From the IMG/VR virus record IMGVR_UViG_3300006880_000001, positions 1 through 64,000 of that record: a stretch of 64,000 nucleotides of DNA; one strand, written 5' to 3'. Below are positions 28,490 to 35,012 of the stretch, piece after piece (the stretch's first letter is position 1; each line of letters begins with the position of its first letter). The notes under the pieces are model-generated. The model ran no database searches, was not told the origin of the DNA, and saw only the letters and a list, made by a program, of their open reading frames with translations. Origin of the DNA: a virus. The position numbers and the translations under genes were made by a program.

Positions 28490-30157
28490 TCATGCTCCTG
28501 CTGGCGTGCATGCCCCGACGTGGCCGTGCGTTGCCACCATCGCCGCCGCCTCGTCGCGAGCGATGAGATCGCGCGTCACCTGATCGTCGGATGACGTCTG
28601 GGAGTTGTTCGACGAGGCGCCGTCCGCGGACACGCGCCAGTAGGCCTCCGGCTTCATGTCGTTGGCGTGGAAGCGGATGTACTGGATCTGCTCGGCGGTG
28701 GGGTCGACGTAGAGCTCGTCGCCGTGGACCCCACGCCAGACTGGACGCGCGACCCGGGTCAGGCGGTAGTTGGACAGGAAGTCCTCCATGTTGACGAGCC
28801 GCGGGTCGACATGGCTGCCCCAGCGCCGCTTGACCTCGCGGAGCGCCGACGTGCGCGCCGCGATGTTCGCCCAGCTGAGCACGAAGCCGCCCCGGCCGAG
28901 GGTACGGATCGCCTCCTCCGCGGGCATTGGAGCGTTGCAGAGCTCGGCCTTCTGTCCGTCGCGGAAGACCTGGTAGGGGCCGTAGCAGAGCGCGTGGTCG
29001 CGGAGCGCTCGCGCGTCGAGGAGGAGCTTGTTGGGCTCGAACCAGTCGTCGGAGCCAAGGCGGGTCCAGTACTCCGTCCACTCGCAGGCGAGGTCCATCC
29101 CGATCTCGTTCAGGGCGACAGCGCCCAGCTTCGGGTACCGCGCGTAGAAGACGCGGGGATCGCGATCCTGCCAGCGCCGCATGATGCTGCACGTGTCGTC
29201 GGTGGACCCATCGTCGAGGACGACCGCGATCCAGTACGGGTAGACCTGGCGCTCGAGGGACGCCAAGGTCTCGTCGAGGGCCCACCCGCGGTTGTGGGTC
29301 GGGATCACGACCGTGAAGGTCTGCTGCCGGGCCTTCATGTCGCCGAGGACCCGATCGATCAGCTCGACCTCCCGGGGCGTGTAGGGCCGGGGCATCCCCT
29401 CGCTCGTACGTTGCACCTGCCGGAAGCTCGCCGACTCGAAGTGGAGATGTCGGTTCGAGTCGCCAAGGCCGTTCCGGTAGGTCACGACCTTCCAGATGAG
29501 GTTCTTGCCGTAGTTCCCCCAGTGGATCACTTCGTAGGGGAAGACCTCGAGCTCGCCATCGTGACCCAGGAACTGTCGCGGGAACTGCGCGTGGTGGGTC
29601 CGGTAGACGACGTCGAAGCAGAGGTCCGGCGACCACCGCCACAGCTTCACGAACCAGCCGTCGTCGAAGCCGTAGTCGGTTCTCGCCCAGGTCGCGTTCC
29701 GCCACAGCTGGGTGTAGTGGCAGCGGTACGCCGGCGCGAGCTTGGGCAGCGTCGGGTCGCGCGGCGCAGCCGGGTCGCCGAGGCGTTCATGACAGAAGGC
29801 GCGGATGGCCGTGACGCCCTCGGGGGAGAGCTCCTCGTCGCCGTCGGCCCACCAGATGAAGTGGGGCCGTAGGCGATGGACGATCTGCATCATCCGATCC
29901 TTGACGGCCAGCTCGTTGCGGAAGTCCTGCTCCGCGGGATCGATCAGGAGGAGGTGCTCGGCGGGGATCTCGCGCTGCAGGACCGCGCGCGTCCCGTCGA
30001 TGGAGGCGTCGTCGCAAGCGACGATCACATCGCAGAACTGCCGCAGGTTGTTCAGGACCCGCGCGAGGTCCCCCTCCCGTACGATCTCGTTCCTGACCTT
30101 GAGGAAGCCACAGATGAGCGGGCGGTTCTCGTCGGACACGTCGGGGAGCTCCTTCAT
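28490..30157 (-). CDS. two-domain GT2-family glycosyltransferase
   Basis: CDDASIDGT / DGDE in the first domain; VVIPTHNR..LDDGSTD..LGSDDW in the second. Confidence 0.85.
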   Translation of the reverse strand: MKELPDVSDENRPLICGFLKVRNEIVREGDLARVLNNLRQFCDVIVACDDASIDGTRAVLQREIPAEHLLLIDPAEQDFRNELAVKDRMMQIVHRLRPHFIWWADGDEELSPEGVTAIRAFCHERLGDPAAPRDPTLPKLAPAYRCHYTQLWRNATWARTDYGFDDGWFVKLWRWSPDLCFDVVYRTHHAQFPRQFLGHDGELEVFPYEVIHWGNYGKNLIWKVVTYRNGLGDSNRHLHFESASFRQVQRTSEGMPRPYTPREVELIDRVLGDMKARQQTFTVVIPTHNRGWALDETLASLERQVYPYWIAVVLDDGSTDDTCSIMRRWQDRDPRVFYARYPKLGAVALNEIGMDLACEWTEYWTRLGSDDWFEPNKLLLDARALRDHALCYGPYQVFRDGQKAELCNAPMPAEEAIRTLGRGGFVLSWANIAARTSALREVKRRWGSHVDPRLVNMEDFLSNYRLTRVARPVWRGVHGDELYVDPTAEQIQYIRFHANDMKPEAYWRVSADGASSNNSQTSSDDQVTRDLIARDEAAAMVATHGHVGACTPAGA

Positions 30158-31188
30158 GGCTTGGCGCGGGTGAGGACGTCCACGATGCGCTCGGCGGCAC
30201 GCCCATCGCCGAATGTACCCTTACTGGTCCGCACCCGTCCCAAAAAGGACGAGACGAGCTCCGGCAGCGTCGAGATGTCTCGGACCAACTGACAGGCGCC
30301 GTCGAGGGCCTCCGGCCGTTCCGTGACGTCGCGCAGGATGAGGCACGGCCGTTCAGCGTCGGCGGCCTCCTCGATCAAGCCCCCCGAGTCGGTGATGACC
30401 ACGGCAGCGGTAGCCACGAGCTGGGCCATGGTCTCGTGGCGAACCGGCTGGAGGATGATGATGTCCGGGTGGTCTCGCACCACCGCCTCGACGGCGCGGC
30501 TGATGAGCGGATTCGGGTGTACCGACCAGAGGATCTTGAGCCGCTCGTTGGCGCACGCTCGTACGGCTTCGGCGATGAGGCGGATGCGCGGCCAATTCTC
30601 CCGACGGTGAACCGTGACCAGCGCGTAGTCGTCGCTGAGGGTCCGGCGGAGGTTCCGACACGCGTTGCGGAAGGCGTCGATGCCGGTGTTGCCCGTGATC
30701 GCGACCCGACCGAGGACGCGTTCGCGGTGGAGGTTCTGCGACGCGTGGGGCGTGGGTGCGAAGTGGAGCGTCGCGATCTGGCTGATGAGCCGCCGGTTGC
30801 CCTCCTCCGGGTACGGCCATTCGGAGTAGGTACGAAGGCCCGCTTCGACGTGCGCCACCACCGCCCCGCGGTACCACGCGGCCAACGCACCCGCGAGCGC
30901 CGTCGTGGTGTCGCCCTGAACCACCACGACGTCGGCATCGTGCTGCCTCAGGTGCATGCTGACCGCCGCGATCGCTTGCCCCAGGAGGATGTCGAGCCCC
31001 GTATCGGAGGTGCGATCGATGGGGGCCACATCGGCCGACAGCCCCGTCTCGGCCAAGTGCTTCTGCAAGAGATGCGCTTGCTGGCCGATCGCGAGCACGC
31101 GGTGTTGGACCTGGCGGGACGCCAGGACGTTGCAGATCGGCGCAAGCTTGATGAGCTCGGGCCGTGTGCCGAGAACCACGGTGATCAT
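30154..31188 (-). CDS. wecB: UDP-N-acetylglucosamine 2-epimerase (non-hydrolysing)
   Basis: GTRPELIKLAP, VQGDTTT, HVEAGLRT, PEEGNR, TGNTGID, HRREN, TDSGG, TERPE. Confidence 0.93.
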   Translation of the reverse strand: MITVVLGTRPELIKLAPICNVLASRQVQHRVLAIGQQAHLLQKHLAETGLSADVAPIDRTSDTGLDILLGQAIAAVSMHLRQHDADVVVVQGDTTTALAGALAAWYRGAVVAHVEAGLRTYSEWPYPEEGNRRLISQIATLHFAPTPHASQNLHRERVLGRVAITGNTGIDAFRNACRNLRRTLSDDYALVTVHRRENWPRIRLIAEAVRACANERLKILWSVHPNPLISRAVEAVVRDHPDIIILQPVRHETMAQLVATAAVVITDSGGLIEEAADAERPCLILRDVTERPEALDGACQLVRDISTLPELVSSFLGRVRTSKGTFGDGRAAERIVDVLTRAKP

Positions 31189-31238: not shown

Positions 31239-32057
31239 ATGGACATGGAACGGCCTCCGCTGCTCTGCGCTGCGATGCCTACCCGGAACGACCGCCTGCC
31301 GCTCCTACCTTGGGCCATCCGCCAATGGCTCGCGCAGACCGAAGACGTCCGTGGCAGCGCCTTCTGCCAACTCTGGATCGGCGTCGACGGAGGGTGGTCG
31401 GACGCCGCGCGGGTCACCACGTGGTTGACCCAGCAGCTGCACGGTCTACCGCCCGAAGTACTCATCGTCCCCATCCCGTTCGCAGGTGCGATCGGTGGGA
31501 AGCGCAACCTCCTCCTGGAGGAGATCGACCGCGGAACGGAGCGCCTCGGCCTGAAGGTCTGGATCCTCACCTGGGACGACGACGACTTCCATGGACCGAA
31601 CCGCCTCCTCTACACCACCCGCGCGATCCAGAAGGACCGCAACGTGACCGTCCTCGGCACGCGCATCATGAAGATCTTCCTGCTCCCGCGCGGTGAGGCG
31701 TGGCGCTATGAGTACCCTGCGGGGCGCCGCCCGGAGTACTACGTCGGCGGCACCATGGCGTTCCGGATCGACGAATGGCGGGCAGAGCCATACAGCGGGG
31801 CGGCCAAGACCGGCGAGGATGCCACCTGGGTCGTGAACCGCATCATGGCGGGCGCGGTCCACGCAGAGATTCCCCACGTCGGCGACGAGTACGTCGCCAT
31901 CTACCACACCGGCAACACGGCCTCACAGCTCCCACCCGAAGACGGCTTCCGAGATCCCTGGTTCGAACCGACGACGCTGGCGCCTTCCTTCTGGGCCGCC
32001 TGGCCGGAGATCGACGCGGCCTACCAGGCATTTCGAGGAACGGCCACCGCACCGTGA
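31239..32057 (+). CDS. GT2-like glycosyltransferase
   Basis: MPTRNDR, IGGKRN, WDDDD, GED. Confidence 0.75.
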   Translation: MDMERPPLLCAAMPTRNDRLPLLPWAIRQWLAQTEDVRGSAFCQLWIGVDGGWSDAARVTTWLTQQLHGLPPEVLIVPIPFAGAIGGKRNLLLEEIDRGTERLGLKVWILTWDDDDFHGPNRLLYTTRAIQKDRNVTVLGTRIMKIFLLPRGEAWRYEYPAGRRPEYYVGGTMAFRIDEWRAEPYSGAAKTGEDATWVVNRIMAGAVHAEIPHVGDEYVAIYHTGNTASQLPPEDGFRDPWFEPTTLAPSFWAAWPEIDAAYQAFRGTATAP

Positions 32058-32070
32058 TACTTATGGCCTG

Positions 32071-32403
32071 ATGCTGCCCAAGCCGTTGCGGTCCGGCGCC
32101 AAGCTCCACCTCTCCAACCGCTTCCGCGCCACCCTTCTGAAGGCTGTCGACGTAGCGTTTGCCATGGCGCTCGTTGACGATCCCACGCTCGAGAGGTTGC
32201 GCGCCCAGGTCACCAACCGACTTGGAGCGCGGTTACCGCTCACGGAGCGTCAGACGACACGTACGGCCCGCGTGCTGCTTGAGGCCATGTTGATCACTTT
32301 CTCCACGCACCTCGATGCAAAGGACCGGGCGGAGATGGAATCCTTCCTGGAGATGATCGAGGCGAAGAATGCGCAGGTTGCCAAGCGGAAGAGGCGCCGC
32401 TAG
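32071..32403 (+). CDS. hypothetical protein
   Basis: 110 aa helical ORF with a basic tail. Confidence 0.55.
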   Translation: MLPKPLRSGAKLHLSNRFRATLLKAVDVAFAMALVDDPTLERLRAQVTNRLGARLPLTERQTTRTARVLLEAMLITFSTHLDAKDRAEMESFLEMIEAKNAQVAKRKRRR

Positions 32404-32442
32404 ACGATCCGTAGGTCACAGCGCCGTGATACGGTTCGCGGC

Positions 32443-32607
32443 ATGATCCTGCCCTACGTTCCCGTCCTCGTCATGGTCGCTGGTCTCTTGCTGTACCTGC
32501 TGAGCAGCAACGCGAAGGCGCAGGAGCTCGGCCGGATCCTGTTCTTCGTCGGTCTGTTCTTCACGGTCGGTGTCATCGGCGGTGCGAAGGTCCTGACCCT
32601 CAAGTAG
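32443..32607 (+). CDS. small two-TM membrane protein (54 aa)
   Basis: Read manually: MILPYVPVLVMVAGLLLYLLSSNAKAQELGRILFFVGLFF...; leaderless after a GTCAC-N10-TACGGT promoter. Confidence 0.7.
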   Translation: MILPYVPVLVMVAGLLLYLLSSNAKAQELGRILFFVGLFFTVGVIGGAKVLTLK

Positions 32608-32634
32608 TTCACCGACGGTGATCGATCACGGCCC

Positions 32635-32663
32635 TTGACACGCCTACATGGTGTCGCTAGGTT
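32635..32663 (+). promoter_or_regulatory. sigma70 promoter of the Pth2/tRNA-like operon
   Basis: TTGACA-N17-TAGGTT, 7 nt upstream of ATG 32671. Confidence 0.7.
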
Positions 32664-33025
32664 CGGTGGCATGTCCCATTGACCGTCAGCCGCCCGCGGC
32701 CACGTCACTCGCCCACTACGTCGTCATCCGCGCTGACCTCCCCCTCGGGTTGAAGGTCGCCAACACAGTCCACGCAGCTGGGCTATCCGCCTCCTGGCGA
32801 GACGGTCCGCTGCCCACCGACACCATCGCCGTGGCTCTCGCCGCGCGTGATGAGAGCCACCTCCACGAGCTCTCCGTGAAGCTCGCGGAGCGCAACATCC
32901 TCCACCACCCTGTCCGTGAGTCCGACGGACCCTACGCGGGGCAGTGGATGGCCATCGGCCTCGAGCCGACCGCCGACCGCGACGCGGTCAGAAAGGTGGT
33001 CTCGCACCTACCGCTCGTGCGGTGA
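32648..33025 (+). CDS. peptidyl-tRNA hydrolase type 2-like protein (PTH2/PTRHD1-like); true start probably the out-of-frame ATG 32671
   Basis: YVVIRADL..G.KVAN.VHAA, VALAARDE, AIGLEP, VVSHLPL. Confidence 0.75.
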   Translation: MVSLGSVACPIDRQPPAATSLAHYVVIRADLPLGLKVANTVHAAGLSASWRDGPLPTDTIAVALAARDESHLHELSVKLAERNILHHPVRESDGPYAGQWMAIGLEPTADRDAVRKVVSHLPLVR

Positions 33026-33033
33026 ACGTTCCT

Positions 33034-33108
33034 GGGGTCGTGGTGTACGCACGCACGCGCCGTCCTCGCGCCGGCGAAGACCTGGCCTGCCGCCAGGCGA
33101 CCCCACCA
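33034..33108 (+). tRNA. non-canonical tRNA-like gene 1 (9-nt anticodon loop UCCUCGCGC)
   Basis: GGGGTCG/CGACCCC acceptor + A-CCA; GTGT/GCAC D stem; CGCCG/CGGCG anticodon stem; CCTGG/CCAGG T stem with 7-nt loop lacking TTC. Confidence 0.75.
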
Positions 33109-33109
33109 A

Positions 33110-33186
33110 GCGCGCTTAGCTCAGCAGCAGAGCACCGAGCGTAATGGACTCGGGTGTCGGGGGTGCGACTCCCTCAGCGCGCGCCA
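33110..33186 (+). tRNA. non-canonical tRNA-like gene 2 (9-nt anticodon loop CGUAAUGGA)
   Basis: GCGCGCT/AGCGCGC acceptor + G-CCA; TA-GCTC/GAGC D arm; CCGAG/CTCGG stem; GGGGG/CCCTC T stem with TGCGACT loop. Confidence 0.85.
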
Positions 33187-33218
33187 GCTGTCACCCTGTT
33201 GTGGTAACGATGCGGGGT

Positions 33219-33470
33219 ATGAGCGATCGATCCAGCGCCGACATCTTCGCGACGATGTTCCTGCTGCTCGACTCGGACAAGACCAAGGAGCAGATCGCCC
33301 AGGAGCTGTGGAAGAAGACATTCGAGTTTGACTTCTCATGCCAGCAGCTCGAGATCGACGACACGTTGGTGCGGTTTGGCCTCGCCAGAAAGGTGAAGCG
33401 CCCCGACTACCCCGACGAGACCATCACCCAGTACCGGCGCGCGGACGGTCGGCGCTGGGATGATCCGTAG
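33219..33470 (+). CDS. hypothetical protein
   Basis: MSDRSSADIF..., GTCAC-N10-TA promoter upstream. Confidence 0.6.
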   Translation: MSDRSSADIFATMFLLLDSDKTKEQIAQELWKKTFEFDFSCQQLEIDDTLVRFGLARKVKRPDYPDETITQYRRADGRRWDDP

Positions 33471-33471
33471 G

Positions 33472-34404
33472 TCACCAGGACCCGATCGCGACCTTCGCCC
33501 GCTCGACGTAGGAGGTGATCCAGGCCGCCTCCTCGGGGAAGTAGATGGCCGGGACGTCGAAGCACCACCAGGGTCTCTCGCCGGGGTAGAAGCGGCAGGG
33601 GATGAAGTCGATCGGCGCCGACGGCGGGTCCCCACGGCCAGGGATCCAGCCATCCGCGAGGAGCAGGAGCCCCCGGTGCATGTGCTCGTGGGGCGTTAGC
33701 TGTGGAGCGTCGATGGGGTCGACCAGGTAGAGATCTCCCTGCCGCCAGACCCCCGTCGAGACCTCCTCCACGACACCCTGGGCGCGGGGATGGGCGAGGA
33801 AGGCATACGACCCGATCGTTTCGTCGAGGTCGGTGTAGTTGGTCCGGGAGGGCAGGTACGGCGCGATCGTGTCGACCAGGGCGTCGTGGGGGATTCCGTA
33901 GTTGAGGGGGAGCATGTAGCGCCAGATCTCGGCGGTGGCCCCCGAGTAGCACATCGGGAACCGGACCTCACCGGGGCGCATGACCGCCGGCGGCCTTGGT
34001 GGCACGGGCGCCGCGGGCTGCATCCAGATGTCCCCGAGGCCGCGGTAGACGATGAAGTCCTCGCGGCGATCGAAGAAGGTCCGCGACAGGGGGATCATGT
34101 CCACGTCGGAGGTCAGGAGGAAGTCCTCGGGGTCGAGGAAGGGCTCGCAAGCGGCGACCAGCCGCGCACAGCGCATCGTGTTGGCGATGCCGAGCGGGGC
34201 CACCGCGTCGATGATGCTGGTGGTGGAACCCGCGAGCGCGAGCTCGGCGCGCACGAGATCGCCGAACGGCGTGTCCCAGCCCTCGGCGTGGAGGTACACC
34301 AACGCCTTGTAGCCGAGACGGCGCCACAGGCGGACGACCAGGGGGAGGTAGATGGCGTAGGTGGGGGCAGCGTCGCAGGCGAGGACGATGTAGCGTTGCT
34401 TCAT
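33472..34404 (-). CDS. putative glycosyltransferase (DxD)
   Basis: ARL, LLTSDVDMIPL, PMCY; glyco-cluster context. Confidence 0.6.
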   Translation of the reverse strand: MKQRYIVLACDAAPTYAIYLPLVVRLWRRLGYKALVYLHAEGWDTPFGDLVRAELALAGSTTSIIDAVAPLGIANTMRCARLVAACEPFLDPEDFLLTSDVDMIPLSRTFFDRREDFIVYRGLGDIWMQPAAPVPPRPPAVMRPGEVRFPMCYSGATAEIWRYMLPLNYGIPHDALVDTIAPYLPSRTNYTDLDETIGSYAFLAHPRAQGVVEEVSTGVWRQGDLYLVDPIDAPQLTPHEHMHRGLLLLADGWIPGRGDPPSAPIDFIPCRFYPGERPWWCFDVPAIYFPEEAAWITSYVERAKVAIGSW

Positions 34405-35012
34405 CTCGGGGGCACCAGGTCGCGGAGGAAGGGATGCCACGAACGCCAGCTCTCTTTGTGCTCGGGGAAGGCGCGCGTGATGGTCTCGTGGTAGCGGTCG
34501 AGCTCGTCGAGGTTGACGAACCGCTCGCGCCAGAGGACGGCGGTGTGGGGTGTGGCGTGGGTGAAGACCGAACGGCGCCAGTCGCCCTGGACGGCGTCGC
34601 GGTACGACGGCTCCTCGAAGTCGTGGGCGACGACGATGGGCGCCCGGGTTTGACTGGTGACGAACGCGATGGTGTCGACCCGGGCGTCGACGGTGACCGA
34701 GTCGTCGATGAAGACGACGTCGTAGTCGTGGTAGTGGAGGAACGGTGCGGCGAGCTTCGCCATGGGCACCCCCTCCTCGTAGTGGAGGCGGCAACCCGGC
34801 CACGGATCGGTGAAGAACTCTCGGCGGACCGCCTCGTAGTACCAGGCCTCGCCGTTCTCGAGGACGTCCAGATGCGTGAGGTCGGGGAAGACCACGTCGT
34901 CCTGGAACATCGGTGAGCTGAAGCATCCCGATCCGAGCTCGAGAAGCCGCCGGATCGGACGGAGCTGCGCTAGAAGGACGAAGACCGGGATGTGCGATCC
35001 GGAGGCGATCAT
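34401..35012 (-). CDS. methyltransferase-like protein
   Basis: LLELGSGCFSS, DVVFIDD, VVAHD. Confidence 0.65.
   Translation of the reverse strand: MIASGSHIPVFVLLAQLRPIRRLLELGSGCFSSPMFQDDVVFPDLTHLDVLENGEAWYYEAVRREFFTDPWPGCRLHYEEGVPMAKLAAPFLHYHDYDVVFIDDSVTVDARVDTIAFVTSQTRAPIVVAHDFEEPSYRDAVQGDWRRSVFTHATPHTAVLWRERFVNLDELDRYHETITRAFPEHKESWRSWHPFLRDLVPPR

Follow-up and report, generated by a model that had tools for sequence, protein, structure and literature searches.

Four bases can be read as one codon by tRNAs with enlarged anticodon loops, as is already known from frameshift suppressor mutants and from genetic-code engineering. A +1 event also takes place in prfB (the gene for release factor 2), where a sense codon is followed by an in-frame UGA-C and slow termination competes with the shift. 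And tRNA-Sec and tRNA-Pyl, which have special architectures, are encoded with the genes that need them and reinterpret a stop signal. Here we describe two adjacent tRNA-shaped genes that lie behind a gene for a protein resembling the peptidyl-tRNA hydrolase Pth2 in an uncultured phage (IMG/VR record IMGVR_UViG_3300006880_000001). (We analysed the first 64 kb of this record of 129,359 base pairs, which has terminal repeats, and we call this stretch the window.) We think it likely that the locus is one copy of a conserved phage cassette, made up of a promoter, a tiny leader open reading frame (ORF), the Pth2-like gene and tRNA-shaped genes, in which four-base reading of CAUU by the second RNA gates the Pth2-like gene and the first RNA is a non-decoding look-alike.

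In the available part of PMC9094753, bases 32, 37 and 38 are said to matter in enlarged-loop tRNAs that read four bases, and it is expected that quadruplet tRNAs or codes will prove very rare in nature. The available part of PMC7609411, which deals with non-canonical tRNAs, gives just one enlarged loop, the 8-nucleotide (nt) loop of a yeast mitochondrial tRNA-Thr. The available part of PMC10264068 is about how phage tRNAs evade tRNases, and expanded loops do not come up in it. Our full-text literature searches, with most subscription journals outside them, found no paper on a natural phage tRNA with a four-base anticodon, on a gated Pth2 gene, or on anticodon-less tRNA look-alikes of phages.

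The second RNA and the leader of the Pth2-like gene

The leader ORF (ATG TCC CAT TGA) is at 32671..32682 on the plus strand, as are all parts of the cassette. The second RNA (33110..33186) has a 9-nt anticodon loop, CGUAAUGGA (33140-33148), with a proposed anticodon AAUG at 33143-33146, followed by G73 and an encoded CCA. All four bases of AAUG are complementary to the CAUU at 32677-32680 in the leader. The fourth base of this CAUU is the first base of the leader's stop codon, and the stop codon is followed by a C. If CAUU is taken as one codon, then the frame leads into GAC CGT CAG ..., which is the Pth2-like frame (32681..33025, with the stop codon TGA at 33023-33025).

In the mechanism that we propose, the second RNA would be cut from the cassette's own transcript, with its CCA already encoded, and would be charged by some host synthetase. 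Its enlarged loop would present the four-base anticodon AAUG, which would read the CAUU of the leader (AUG UCC CAUU) as a single codon, and this four-base read would shift the ribosome +1 into the Pth2-like frame. Without the second RNA, CAU would be read by the host's tRNA-His and translation would terminate at UGA-C. Production of the hydrolase-like protein would thus depend, entirely or mostly, on a decoder that has matured, is charged and wins this competition.

The proposed decoder shares an enlarged loop, four complementary bases and a +1 shift with frameshift suppressors (sufD and SufB2) and with engineered quadruplet tRNAs. However, those were obtained as mutants or by design in the laboratory and have 8-nt loops, whereas the second RNA is wild type, has a 9-nt loop, is conserved across many phages, and adjoins the gene that it would open; its decoding is predicted here from sequence. 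The weak-context stop after the shift codon (CAT TGA C in the window) is common to prfB and to these cassettes. But prfB relies on the slippage of an ordinary tRNA and on an internal Shine-Dalgarno sequence, while the cassettes have a leader of 1-6 codons, often apparently leaderless, and a dedicated tRNA that would add a fourth pairing base. (We saw no purine-rich stretch in the leader of the window: there are two codons before CAUU, and 7 nt lie between the start codon and a -10-like hexamer.) tRNA-Sec and tRNA-Pyl differ in that their codons are stop codons of three bases and that dedicated factors charge or deliver them; we identified no such factor in the cassette.

A scan of viral contigs with protein alignment gave 80 loci. 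We used 73 non-identical loci for the codon/anticodon test and 72 non-identical viral loci for a count of start codons. (A first protein scan of viral contigs had given 8 loci. Six of these, L003-L008, matched only residues 77-108 and had no tRNA, and none of the counts includes them; the other two, L001 and L002, are contigs that also appear as L065 and L068.) In most of the 80 loci, ARAGORN identified at least one tRNA-like gene, and in some cases several, whose anticodon arm is abnormal and which lies downstream of the hydrolase-like gene, within a few hundred bases of it. The linkage that a first-pass annotation of the window had drawn between these genes is thus conserved across viruses. 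The anticodon arms are of several types: a five-pair stem with a nine-base loop, which is mostly (A/C)GUAAUGA(C/A); a stem capped by a GAAA or UUCG tetraloop; or a long arm with a CUUG cap. A tRNA-shaped body begins at most 20 nt past the stop codon of the Pth2-like gene in 23 of the 76 loci examined, by a hand count.

At least one expanded-loop tRNA is present in 55 of the 73 non-identical loci. In 52 of these 55 loci, the complementary four-base word is found in the leader, in the -1 frame and behind a start codon, with the Pth2 frame open beyond it. With random four-base words, we would expect about 2.7 loci to match. When the sets of tRNAs were shuffled among the loci (1000 trials), an average of 14.1 loci and a maximum of 21 loci matched, and this control is inflated because many loci share CAUU and AAUG. 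There are 16 different codon/anticodon pairs, including CAUU/AAUG, GAUU/AAUC, GCUU/AAGC, CCUU/AAGG, CUAU/AUAG, CCAU/AUGG, CGUU/AACG and CGAG/CUCG. If we consider each tRNA instead of each locus, then 59 of 69 expanded-loop tRNAs have a match, as compared to 8 of the 49 canonical tRNAs from the same loci. Furthermore, 73 occurrences of the word are in the leader frame, as compared to just 5 and 4 in the other two frames of the same physical region. This frame specificity argues for reading by the ribosome and against mere pairing of RNAs. We believe that these comparisons make a strong computational case for natural four-base decoding. They also support, for the second RNA, an earlier suggestion that the two RNAs might be recoding tRNAs, as anticodon and leader codon change together across loci; for the first RNA, we found no decoding target. 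The mechanism that we propose is also narrower than that suggestion. And where the first-pass annotation had the Pth enzyme servicing the tRNAs, the logic seems to be reversed: the evidence is for a tRNA that gives access to the Pth2-like gene.

Leaders of the same design (ATG, 1-6 codons, and a matched four-base codon) are present in 52 non-identical loci. In L121, a metagenomic locus whose protein is 51% identical, and in L124, a contig from a bacterial metagenome-assembled genome (MAG), the leader is like that of the window and reads ATG AGC CAUU GAC. The fourth base opens a stop codon in 29 of the 52 loci, and in 19 of those 29 the stop is TGA followed by C. The Pth2 frame itself has no ATG, GTG or TTG between the upstream stop and the conserved core in 45 of the 72 non-identical viral loci. 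As a side observation, the matched word occurs 2-3 times in the leader frame in 8 of the 52 loci (L018, L032, L043, L047, L062, L081, L086 and L087), for instance as CAUU UGC repeats, which would give the ribosome several chances to shift.

By eye, we noticed a promoter-like element at 32635..32663, with TTGACA (32635-32640), a 17-nt spacer and TAGGTT (32658-32663). It ends 7 nt before the leader's ATG at 32671. A transcript that starts from this element would be leaderless, and it would exclude the in-frame ATG at 32648 (with which a mechanically called Pth2-like ORF would span 32648-33025). The layout in L121 is the same (TTGCCA-17-TAGGTT-7-ATG), and a TANNNT hexamer lies 6-7 nt before the leader's ATG in 25 of 59 loci, a position that would fit leaderless transcripts.

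If the proposal is correct, then it provides a natural precedent for quadruplet codons, along with codon/tRNA pairs that were refined by evolution and whose nine-base loop is a design not yet used in engineering. It would also be a gene switch of a new type: the protein could be made only after an RNA from the same transcript had matured and been charged. A broader reading is that many soil and water phages have a natural four-base code word, read by a wild-type tRNA with a nine-base loop in at least 16 co-evolved pairs, that locks a PTH2-type hydrolase; that the look-alikes (including the open-loop form seen as the first RNA) are partners or substrates of this hydrolase; and that together these make up a new regulatory or counter-defence module. 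We put this forward tentatively, at somewhat less than even confidence. It raises the question of why phages would tie a Pth-like enzyme to tRNA look-alikes that are unable to read codons.

Structures and relatives of the two RNAs

The first RNA (33034..33108) begins 8 nt after the stop codon of the Pth2-like gene, and a single nucleotide (33109) separates it from the second. In the first RNA, the acceptor stem is GGGGTCG/CGACCCC (7 Watson-Crick pairs), the D stem is GTGT/GCAC with the D loop ACGCAC, the anticodon stem is CGCCG/CGGCG with the 9-nt loop UCCUCGCGC (33063-33071), the variable region is AAGA, and the T stem is CCTGG/CCAGG with the T loop CCTGCCG. All 21 stem pairs are intact, and the RNA ends with A73 and an encoded CCA. 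In the second RNA, the acceptor stem is GCGCGCT/AGCGCGC (7 perfect pairs), the D stem is GCTC/GAGC with the D loop AGCAGCA, the anticodon stem is CCGAG/CTCGG, and the T stem is GGGGG/CCCTC with the T loop TGCGACT. Neither RNA has GG in its D loop or UUC in its T loop. Reading the sequence therefore bears out the original description of two cloverleaves with 7-pair acceptor stems, an encoded CCA, 9-nt loops, and neither GG nor UUC.

A check with ARAGORN and Rfam detected the second RNA and missed the first with both tools. ARAGORN reports the second RNA as "Ile aat", drawn with a 7-nt loop and a C.A mismatch, and its score for the Rfam tRNA family (RF00005) is 45.4 bits, as compared to a cut-off of 29, when 401 bases are searched. 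When the whole window was searched with Rfam's gathering scores, there were no matches, and even the second RNA was missed. The first RNA was not called by ARAGORN, even at -ps90, and had no match in Rfam at E-values of up to 10. It does pass our custom scanner for tRNA bodies, which is loose (179 matches on 81 loci versus 46 on reversed sequences). So, if we ask which of the RNAs is a canonical tRNA, only the second reaches the score for RF00005, and neither has a 7-base loop. The folding energies of the two RNAs (z-scores of -1.49 and -0.96) are weak and uninformative evidence, and so the case for real structure must rest on comparison.

We aligned 56 expanded-loop tRNAs, including both RNAs from the window. 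Across this alignment, 97.9% of the cells are paired and two-sided changes are found at 20 of the 21 pairs. The alignment has a covariation score of 0.751, as compared to 0.181 for shuffled sequences and at most 0.14 if the partners are slid. Covariation is seen at each of the five anticodon-stem pairs; the outermost one, which ARAGORN leaves unpaired, has 14 two-sided changes. Compensatory changes in this family, and in the relatives of the first RNA that are described below, confirm the earlier view that the stems are under selection and are not decaying. The loop has nine bases in 52 of the 56 tRNAs, and the positions that could close it to a smaller loop pair in just 10. GG is kept in 47 of the 56 relatives and TTC in 48, so their absence is peculiar to a few members of the family, including both RNAs of the window and that of L049.

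Among the 52 nine-base loops, 47 have U at position 3 and 46 have A at position 8. This gives a pattern in which the four bases of the anticodon are preceded by a U33-like base and followed by an A37-like purine. An A occupies position 4 in 48 of the 52 loops, because the base opposite is the U that is so often the start of a stop codon. The loop of the second RNA, read as C-G-U-(AAUG)-G-A, fits this pattern for decoders. Hence, of the features that one would look for in a quadruplet decoder, the second RNA has both the enlarged loop with a U33-like base and a purine, and the complementary codon at a site where a +1 shift would be productive. The loop of the first RNA, read as U-C-C-(UCGC)-G-C, departs from the family at positions 3, 4 and 8. 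The two RNAs were said to deviate in the same way, and they do have the length of the loop in common, but at each of the three loop positions that are conserved among decoders, the first RNA has a different base.

The first RNA has relatives in L049 (1923-1998), L054 (1836-1916) and L121 (1448-1519). As compared to the sole AAUG decoder of L049, it has the same D stem, T stem and variable region; one acceptor pair and one anticodon-stem pair are changed on both sides; and 7 of the 9 loop bases differ. The relative in L054 has the acceptor and D arm of the first RNA with a different middle part. In L121, the first RNA behind the stop codon has the D arm and T stem of the first RNA from the window, but in place of an open loop it has a 7-pair stem capped by GAAA. 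Across these four sequences, the acceptor and T stems are paired in 48 of 48 cells, and 6 of the 12 pairs change on both sides. These comparisons indicate that the first RNA is kept as a structure and is under selection. It is probably a former decoder (a paralogue) that has been retained as a non-decoding tRNA look-alike, and it sits in the slot that tetraloop-sealed look-alikes occupy in its relatives. Candidate jobs for it are as a substrate, a decoy or a processing element. Of the roles that had been suggested for both RNAs, those of decoy or carrier are possible for the first RNA only.

We also looked for words that the first RNA might read. In 150 crudely called genes, which cover 75% of the genome, its potential target codons are not avoided in frame: GCGA, the word that it would read by analogy to the decoders, occurs 350 times versus 319 expected and is among the phage's commonest in-frame words, CGAG occurs 70 times versus 93 expected, and GAGG occurs 563 times versus 568 expected. 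A genome-wide scan for tiny leaders, which by design skips the Pth2 leader because of the upstream starts in that frame, gave only unspecific candidates, none with the words of the first RNA. Matches to the complement of its loop show no enrichment (74 versus 70.6 expected). Searching for a wider family with a pattern from its 5' part gave 32 stretches, of which 7 closed as a cloverleaf; 2 of these 7 are the known contigs of L049 and L054 and the rest are ordinary or doubtful, so this search gave no wider family.

Two known kinds of RNA, the tRNA-like domain of tmRNA and the bacterial Y RNA YrlA, resemble the first RNA and its sealed relatives in keeping the acceptor arm, the T arm and CCA while having lost decoding. 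G3.U70 is the alanine mark of tmRNA. The first RNA differs from tmRNA at this pair, which is G3-C70. No tmRNA or Y RNA was found on the stretch by Rfam at E-values of up to 10, and ARAGORN found no tmRNA.

Other tRNA-shaped RNAs also lie near the Pth2-like gene. RNAs that are sealed by a GAAA or UUCG tetraloop are found in L121 (1448-1676), L056, L062, L069, L075, L077, L080 and L088, and a long CUUG-capped arm is found in L044, L051, L065 and L077. Both kinds of look-alike are usually the first RNA behind the Pth2-like stop codon and often end with ACCA. In L009 (1899-1989) and L053 (1889-1980), the Pth2-like gene is separated from the AAUG decoders by longer tRNA bodies, which have a middle part of 42-43 nt and end with ACCA or ACCG. 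The loop of their hairpin, (A/C)GUCAUGAA, would give the four-base anticodon CAUG, and ARAGORN does not detect these RNAs. In bacterial genomes, we viewed four loci briefly (three from Myxococcota and one from a Pseudomonadota MAG). In the Myxococcota contigs (L125, L126 and L127, one of which is 6.98 Mb), an expanded-loop tRNA is directly upstream of the Pth2-like gene and there is no tRNA downstream; such an arrangement may come from a prophage or represent a bacterial form of the cassette.

Alternative explanations

Because ARAGORN draws the second RNA with a 7-nt loop and the anticodon AAT, we considered that it might be an ordinary triplet reader (Ile, AAU) for a rare AUU in the Pth2 frame (CCC ATT GAC). 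In this case, translation would start at the ATG at 32648 and the match at the fourth base would be a coincidence. The window does have in-frame starts (at 32648, 32651 and 32666), and phages often carry tRNAs for rare codons, according to the available part of PMC10264068. Nevertheless, we think this quite improbable, as all four bases match for 59 of the 69 expanded-loop tRNAs and the fourth base changes together with its partner (AAUG/CAUU versus AAUC/GAUU, and AAGC/GCUU versus AAGG/CCUU). Nor does it fit the 45 loci without a start codon in the Pth2 frame, or the five-pair stem that leaves a 9-nt loop, whose outermost pair co-varies while the closing positions seldom pair. The complementarity is real, and it might instead reflect pairing of the two RNAs without decoding, as in a T-box-like sensor or an antisense regulator of the hydrolase mRNA. 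(In T-box riboswitches, the anticodon of a tRNA pairs with the leader to control the downstream gene.) We consider this very improbable: the word is nearly always in the one frame that links the start codon to the Pth2 frame, leaders of 1-6 codons have no room for a Stem I, and many loci have no other way to start the protein. Rfam's gathering scores gave no match to T-boxes or other leader families in the window, and a search of 32900-33300 at E-values of up to 10 gave none either; the leader region (32635-32682) was covered by the gathering search only.

A third explanation is that both RNAs act against host defences, as decoys or nuclease-resistant substitutes for host tRNAs that are targets of anticodon nucleases or of acceptor-modifying enzymes, that their altered loops serve to evade or absorb these enzymes, and that the Pth2-like enzyme clears damaged or blocked tRNAs. 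Changes in the anticodon loops of phage tRNAs have been proposed to evade host tRNases (PMC10264068, available part), and the PTH2 of large phages has been discussed in connection with ribosome rescue after tRNA cleavage (PMC7824862, available part). This explanation would suit the relatives that have GAAA, UUCG or CUUG caps and hence no anticodon, as well as the lack of a detectable codon target for the first RNA. But it leaves the frame-specific four-base match of the second RNA unexplained; the words "expanded", "nine" and "frameshift" do not occur in the available part of PMC10264068; and we identified no defence or counter-defence gene beside the cassette, where Pfam and PHROGS are blank for the flanking small ORFs. 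We regard it as unlikely. Finally, the first RNA, or both RNAs, could be decaying duplicates of phage tRNA genes whose 9-nt loops are damage from insertions or deletions. The first RNA escapes both ARAGORN and Rfam, lacks the elbow signature of the D and T loops, is not a cloverleaf in its predicted minimum-energy fold, and has a loop that matches no leader codon. However, decay would not be expected to leave every one of its stem pairs intact, to make compensatory changes in the acceptor and anticodon stems relative to L049 while 7 of 9 loop bases differ, or to preserve acceptor and T stems in full across four relatives. Besides, a 9-nt loop is the norm for the family, and two assemblies agree on the sequence. 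Decay is the least probable explanation that we weighed.

Some of our results weigh against four-base decoding by the second RNA, with the first as its non-decoding look-alike. Given the ATG at 32648 and the GTGs at 32651 and 32666 in the Pth2 frame, the shift in the window is obligatory only if transcription starts near 32670, and a tool for sigma-70 consensus promoters found no sites in 32300-33600. The phage is uncultured, and no RNA sequencing runs that hold this stretch are listed. Three of the 55 loci (L027, L053 and L058) have no match, and the match rate of canonical tRNAs (8 of 49) exceeds the random rate of 4.8%. CAUU/AAUG is shared by descent in many loci, so these loci are not independent events. 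In the same crudely called genes, in-frame CAUU is only mildly rare (7 occurrences versus 15.2 expected). The loop has 9 bases and not 8 as in the known four-base readers, and the discriminator bases vary among the relatives, which bears on charging identity. As for the first RNA, an alternative fold (-38.0 kcal/mol) is more stable than its cloverleaf (-31.7 kcal/mol), and the view that it does not decode is supported by only four relatives.

The Pth2-like protein and its surroundings

The match of the predicted protein to the PTH2 family of archaeal/eukaryotic-type peptidyl-tRNA hydrolases in Pfam (PF01981) is at 20.3 bits (E = 6.7e-4), which is below the cut-off of 23 bits. We found 43 homologues in a large protein collection, and just 6 of these had a precomputed label of PF01981. 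A profile of 42 homologues, compared to the Protein Data Bank, matched the Pth2 protein AF2095 (1rzw; E = 8.1e-5). Furthermore, an AlphaFold2 model of the protein (pLDDT, a per-residue confidence score, of 89; pTM, a predicted template-modelling score, of 0.79) gave 13 best matches in Foldseek, of which 12 are chains from the PTH2/Bit1 family (template-modelling (TM) scores of 0.63-0.76) and the remaining one is the functionally uncharacterised Atu0240 (TM 0.52-0.56). On this model, the fold is that of Pth2. In the profile alignment, the lysine in the RGK segment of AF2095 aligns with a valine, and the aspartate in the DAG segment aligns with a glutamate (E91) that is invariant in the family, as is H42. 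We take the RGK lysine and the DAG aspartate to be catalytic residues of Pth2, so the active site of the Pth2-like protein looks altered, and hydrolase activity would be a prediction from the fold. PTH2 genes occur in jumbo phages (PMC7824862, available part); the protein described here has the same fold as PTH2 from large phages but differs in its score below the Pfam cut-off and at the RGK and DAG positions.

The bases right after the four-base codon are also conserved. They are GAC AGT CAG CC in L014, L020, L050, L056, L072 and L083, and GAC CGT CAG CC in the window (32681-32692), so the shifted protein would open with a shared D-S/R-Q-P.

Upstream of the cassette, on the minus strand at 28490-31188, Pfam identifies a UDP-GlcNAc 2-epimerase (PF02350; E = 7.7e-73) and a family-2 glycosyltransferase, which make up the glycan cluster mentioned in the first-pass annotation. 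No result links these glycan genes to the RNAs or to the cassette, and the other cassette loci were not checked for glycan genes. Among the neighbouring ORFs, these two were the only ones named by Pfam, and six neighbouring ORFs had no match in PHROGS. Comparing 32000-34500 to the GenBank phage collection with blastn gave no match.

The sequence of 32600-33250 is identical in contigs from two sequencing runs (X1 and X2), both of which are possible sources of the window's DNA; this agreement was judged from the assembled contigs of the runs. Two other contigs cover only 32633-32910 (X3) and 32834-33034 (X4), and neither extends to the tRNAs.

A genome-wide search with the Rfam families named only a tRNA-Leu, which suggests that odd tRNAs of the kind described here are easily overlooked in routine annotation. 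This canonical tRNA-Leu(UAA) lies beyond the window (C1:87833-87907) and is the only other tRNA that ARAGORN and Rfam found in the 129-kb record. We judged one paper on the UUA codon in Streptomyces (PMC10732093) to be not relevant. The tRNA-Leu(UAA) reads UUA, a codon that is rare in high-GC hosts.

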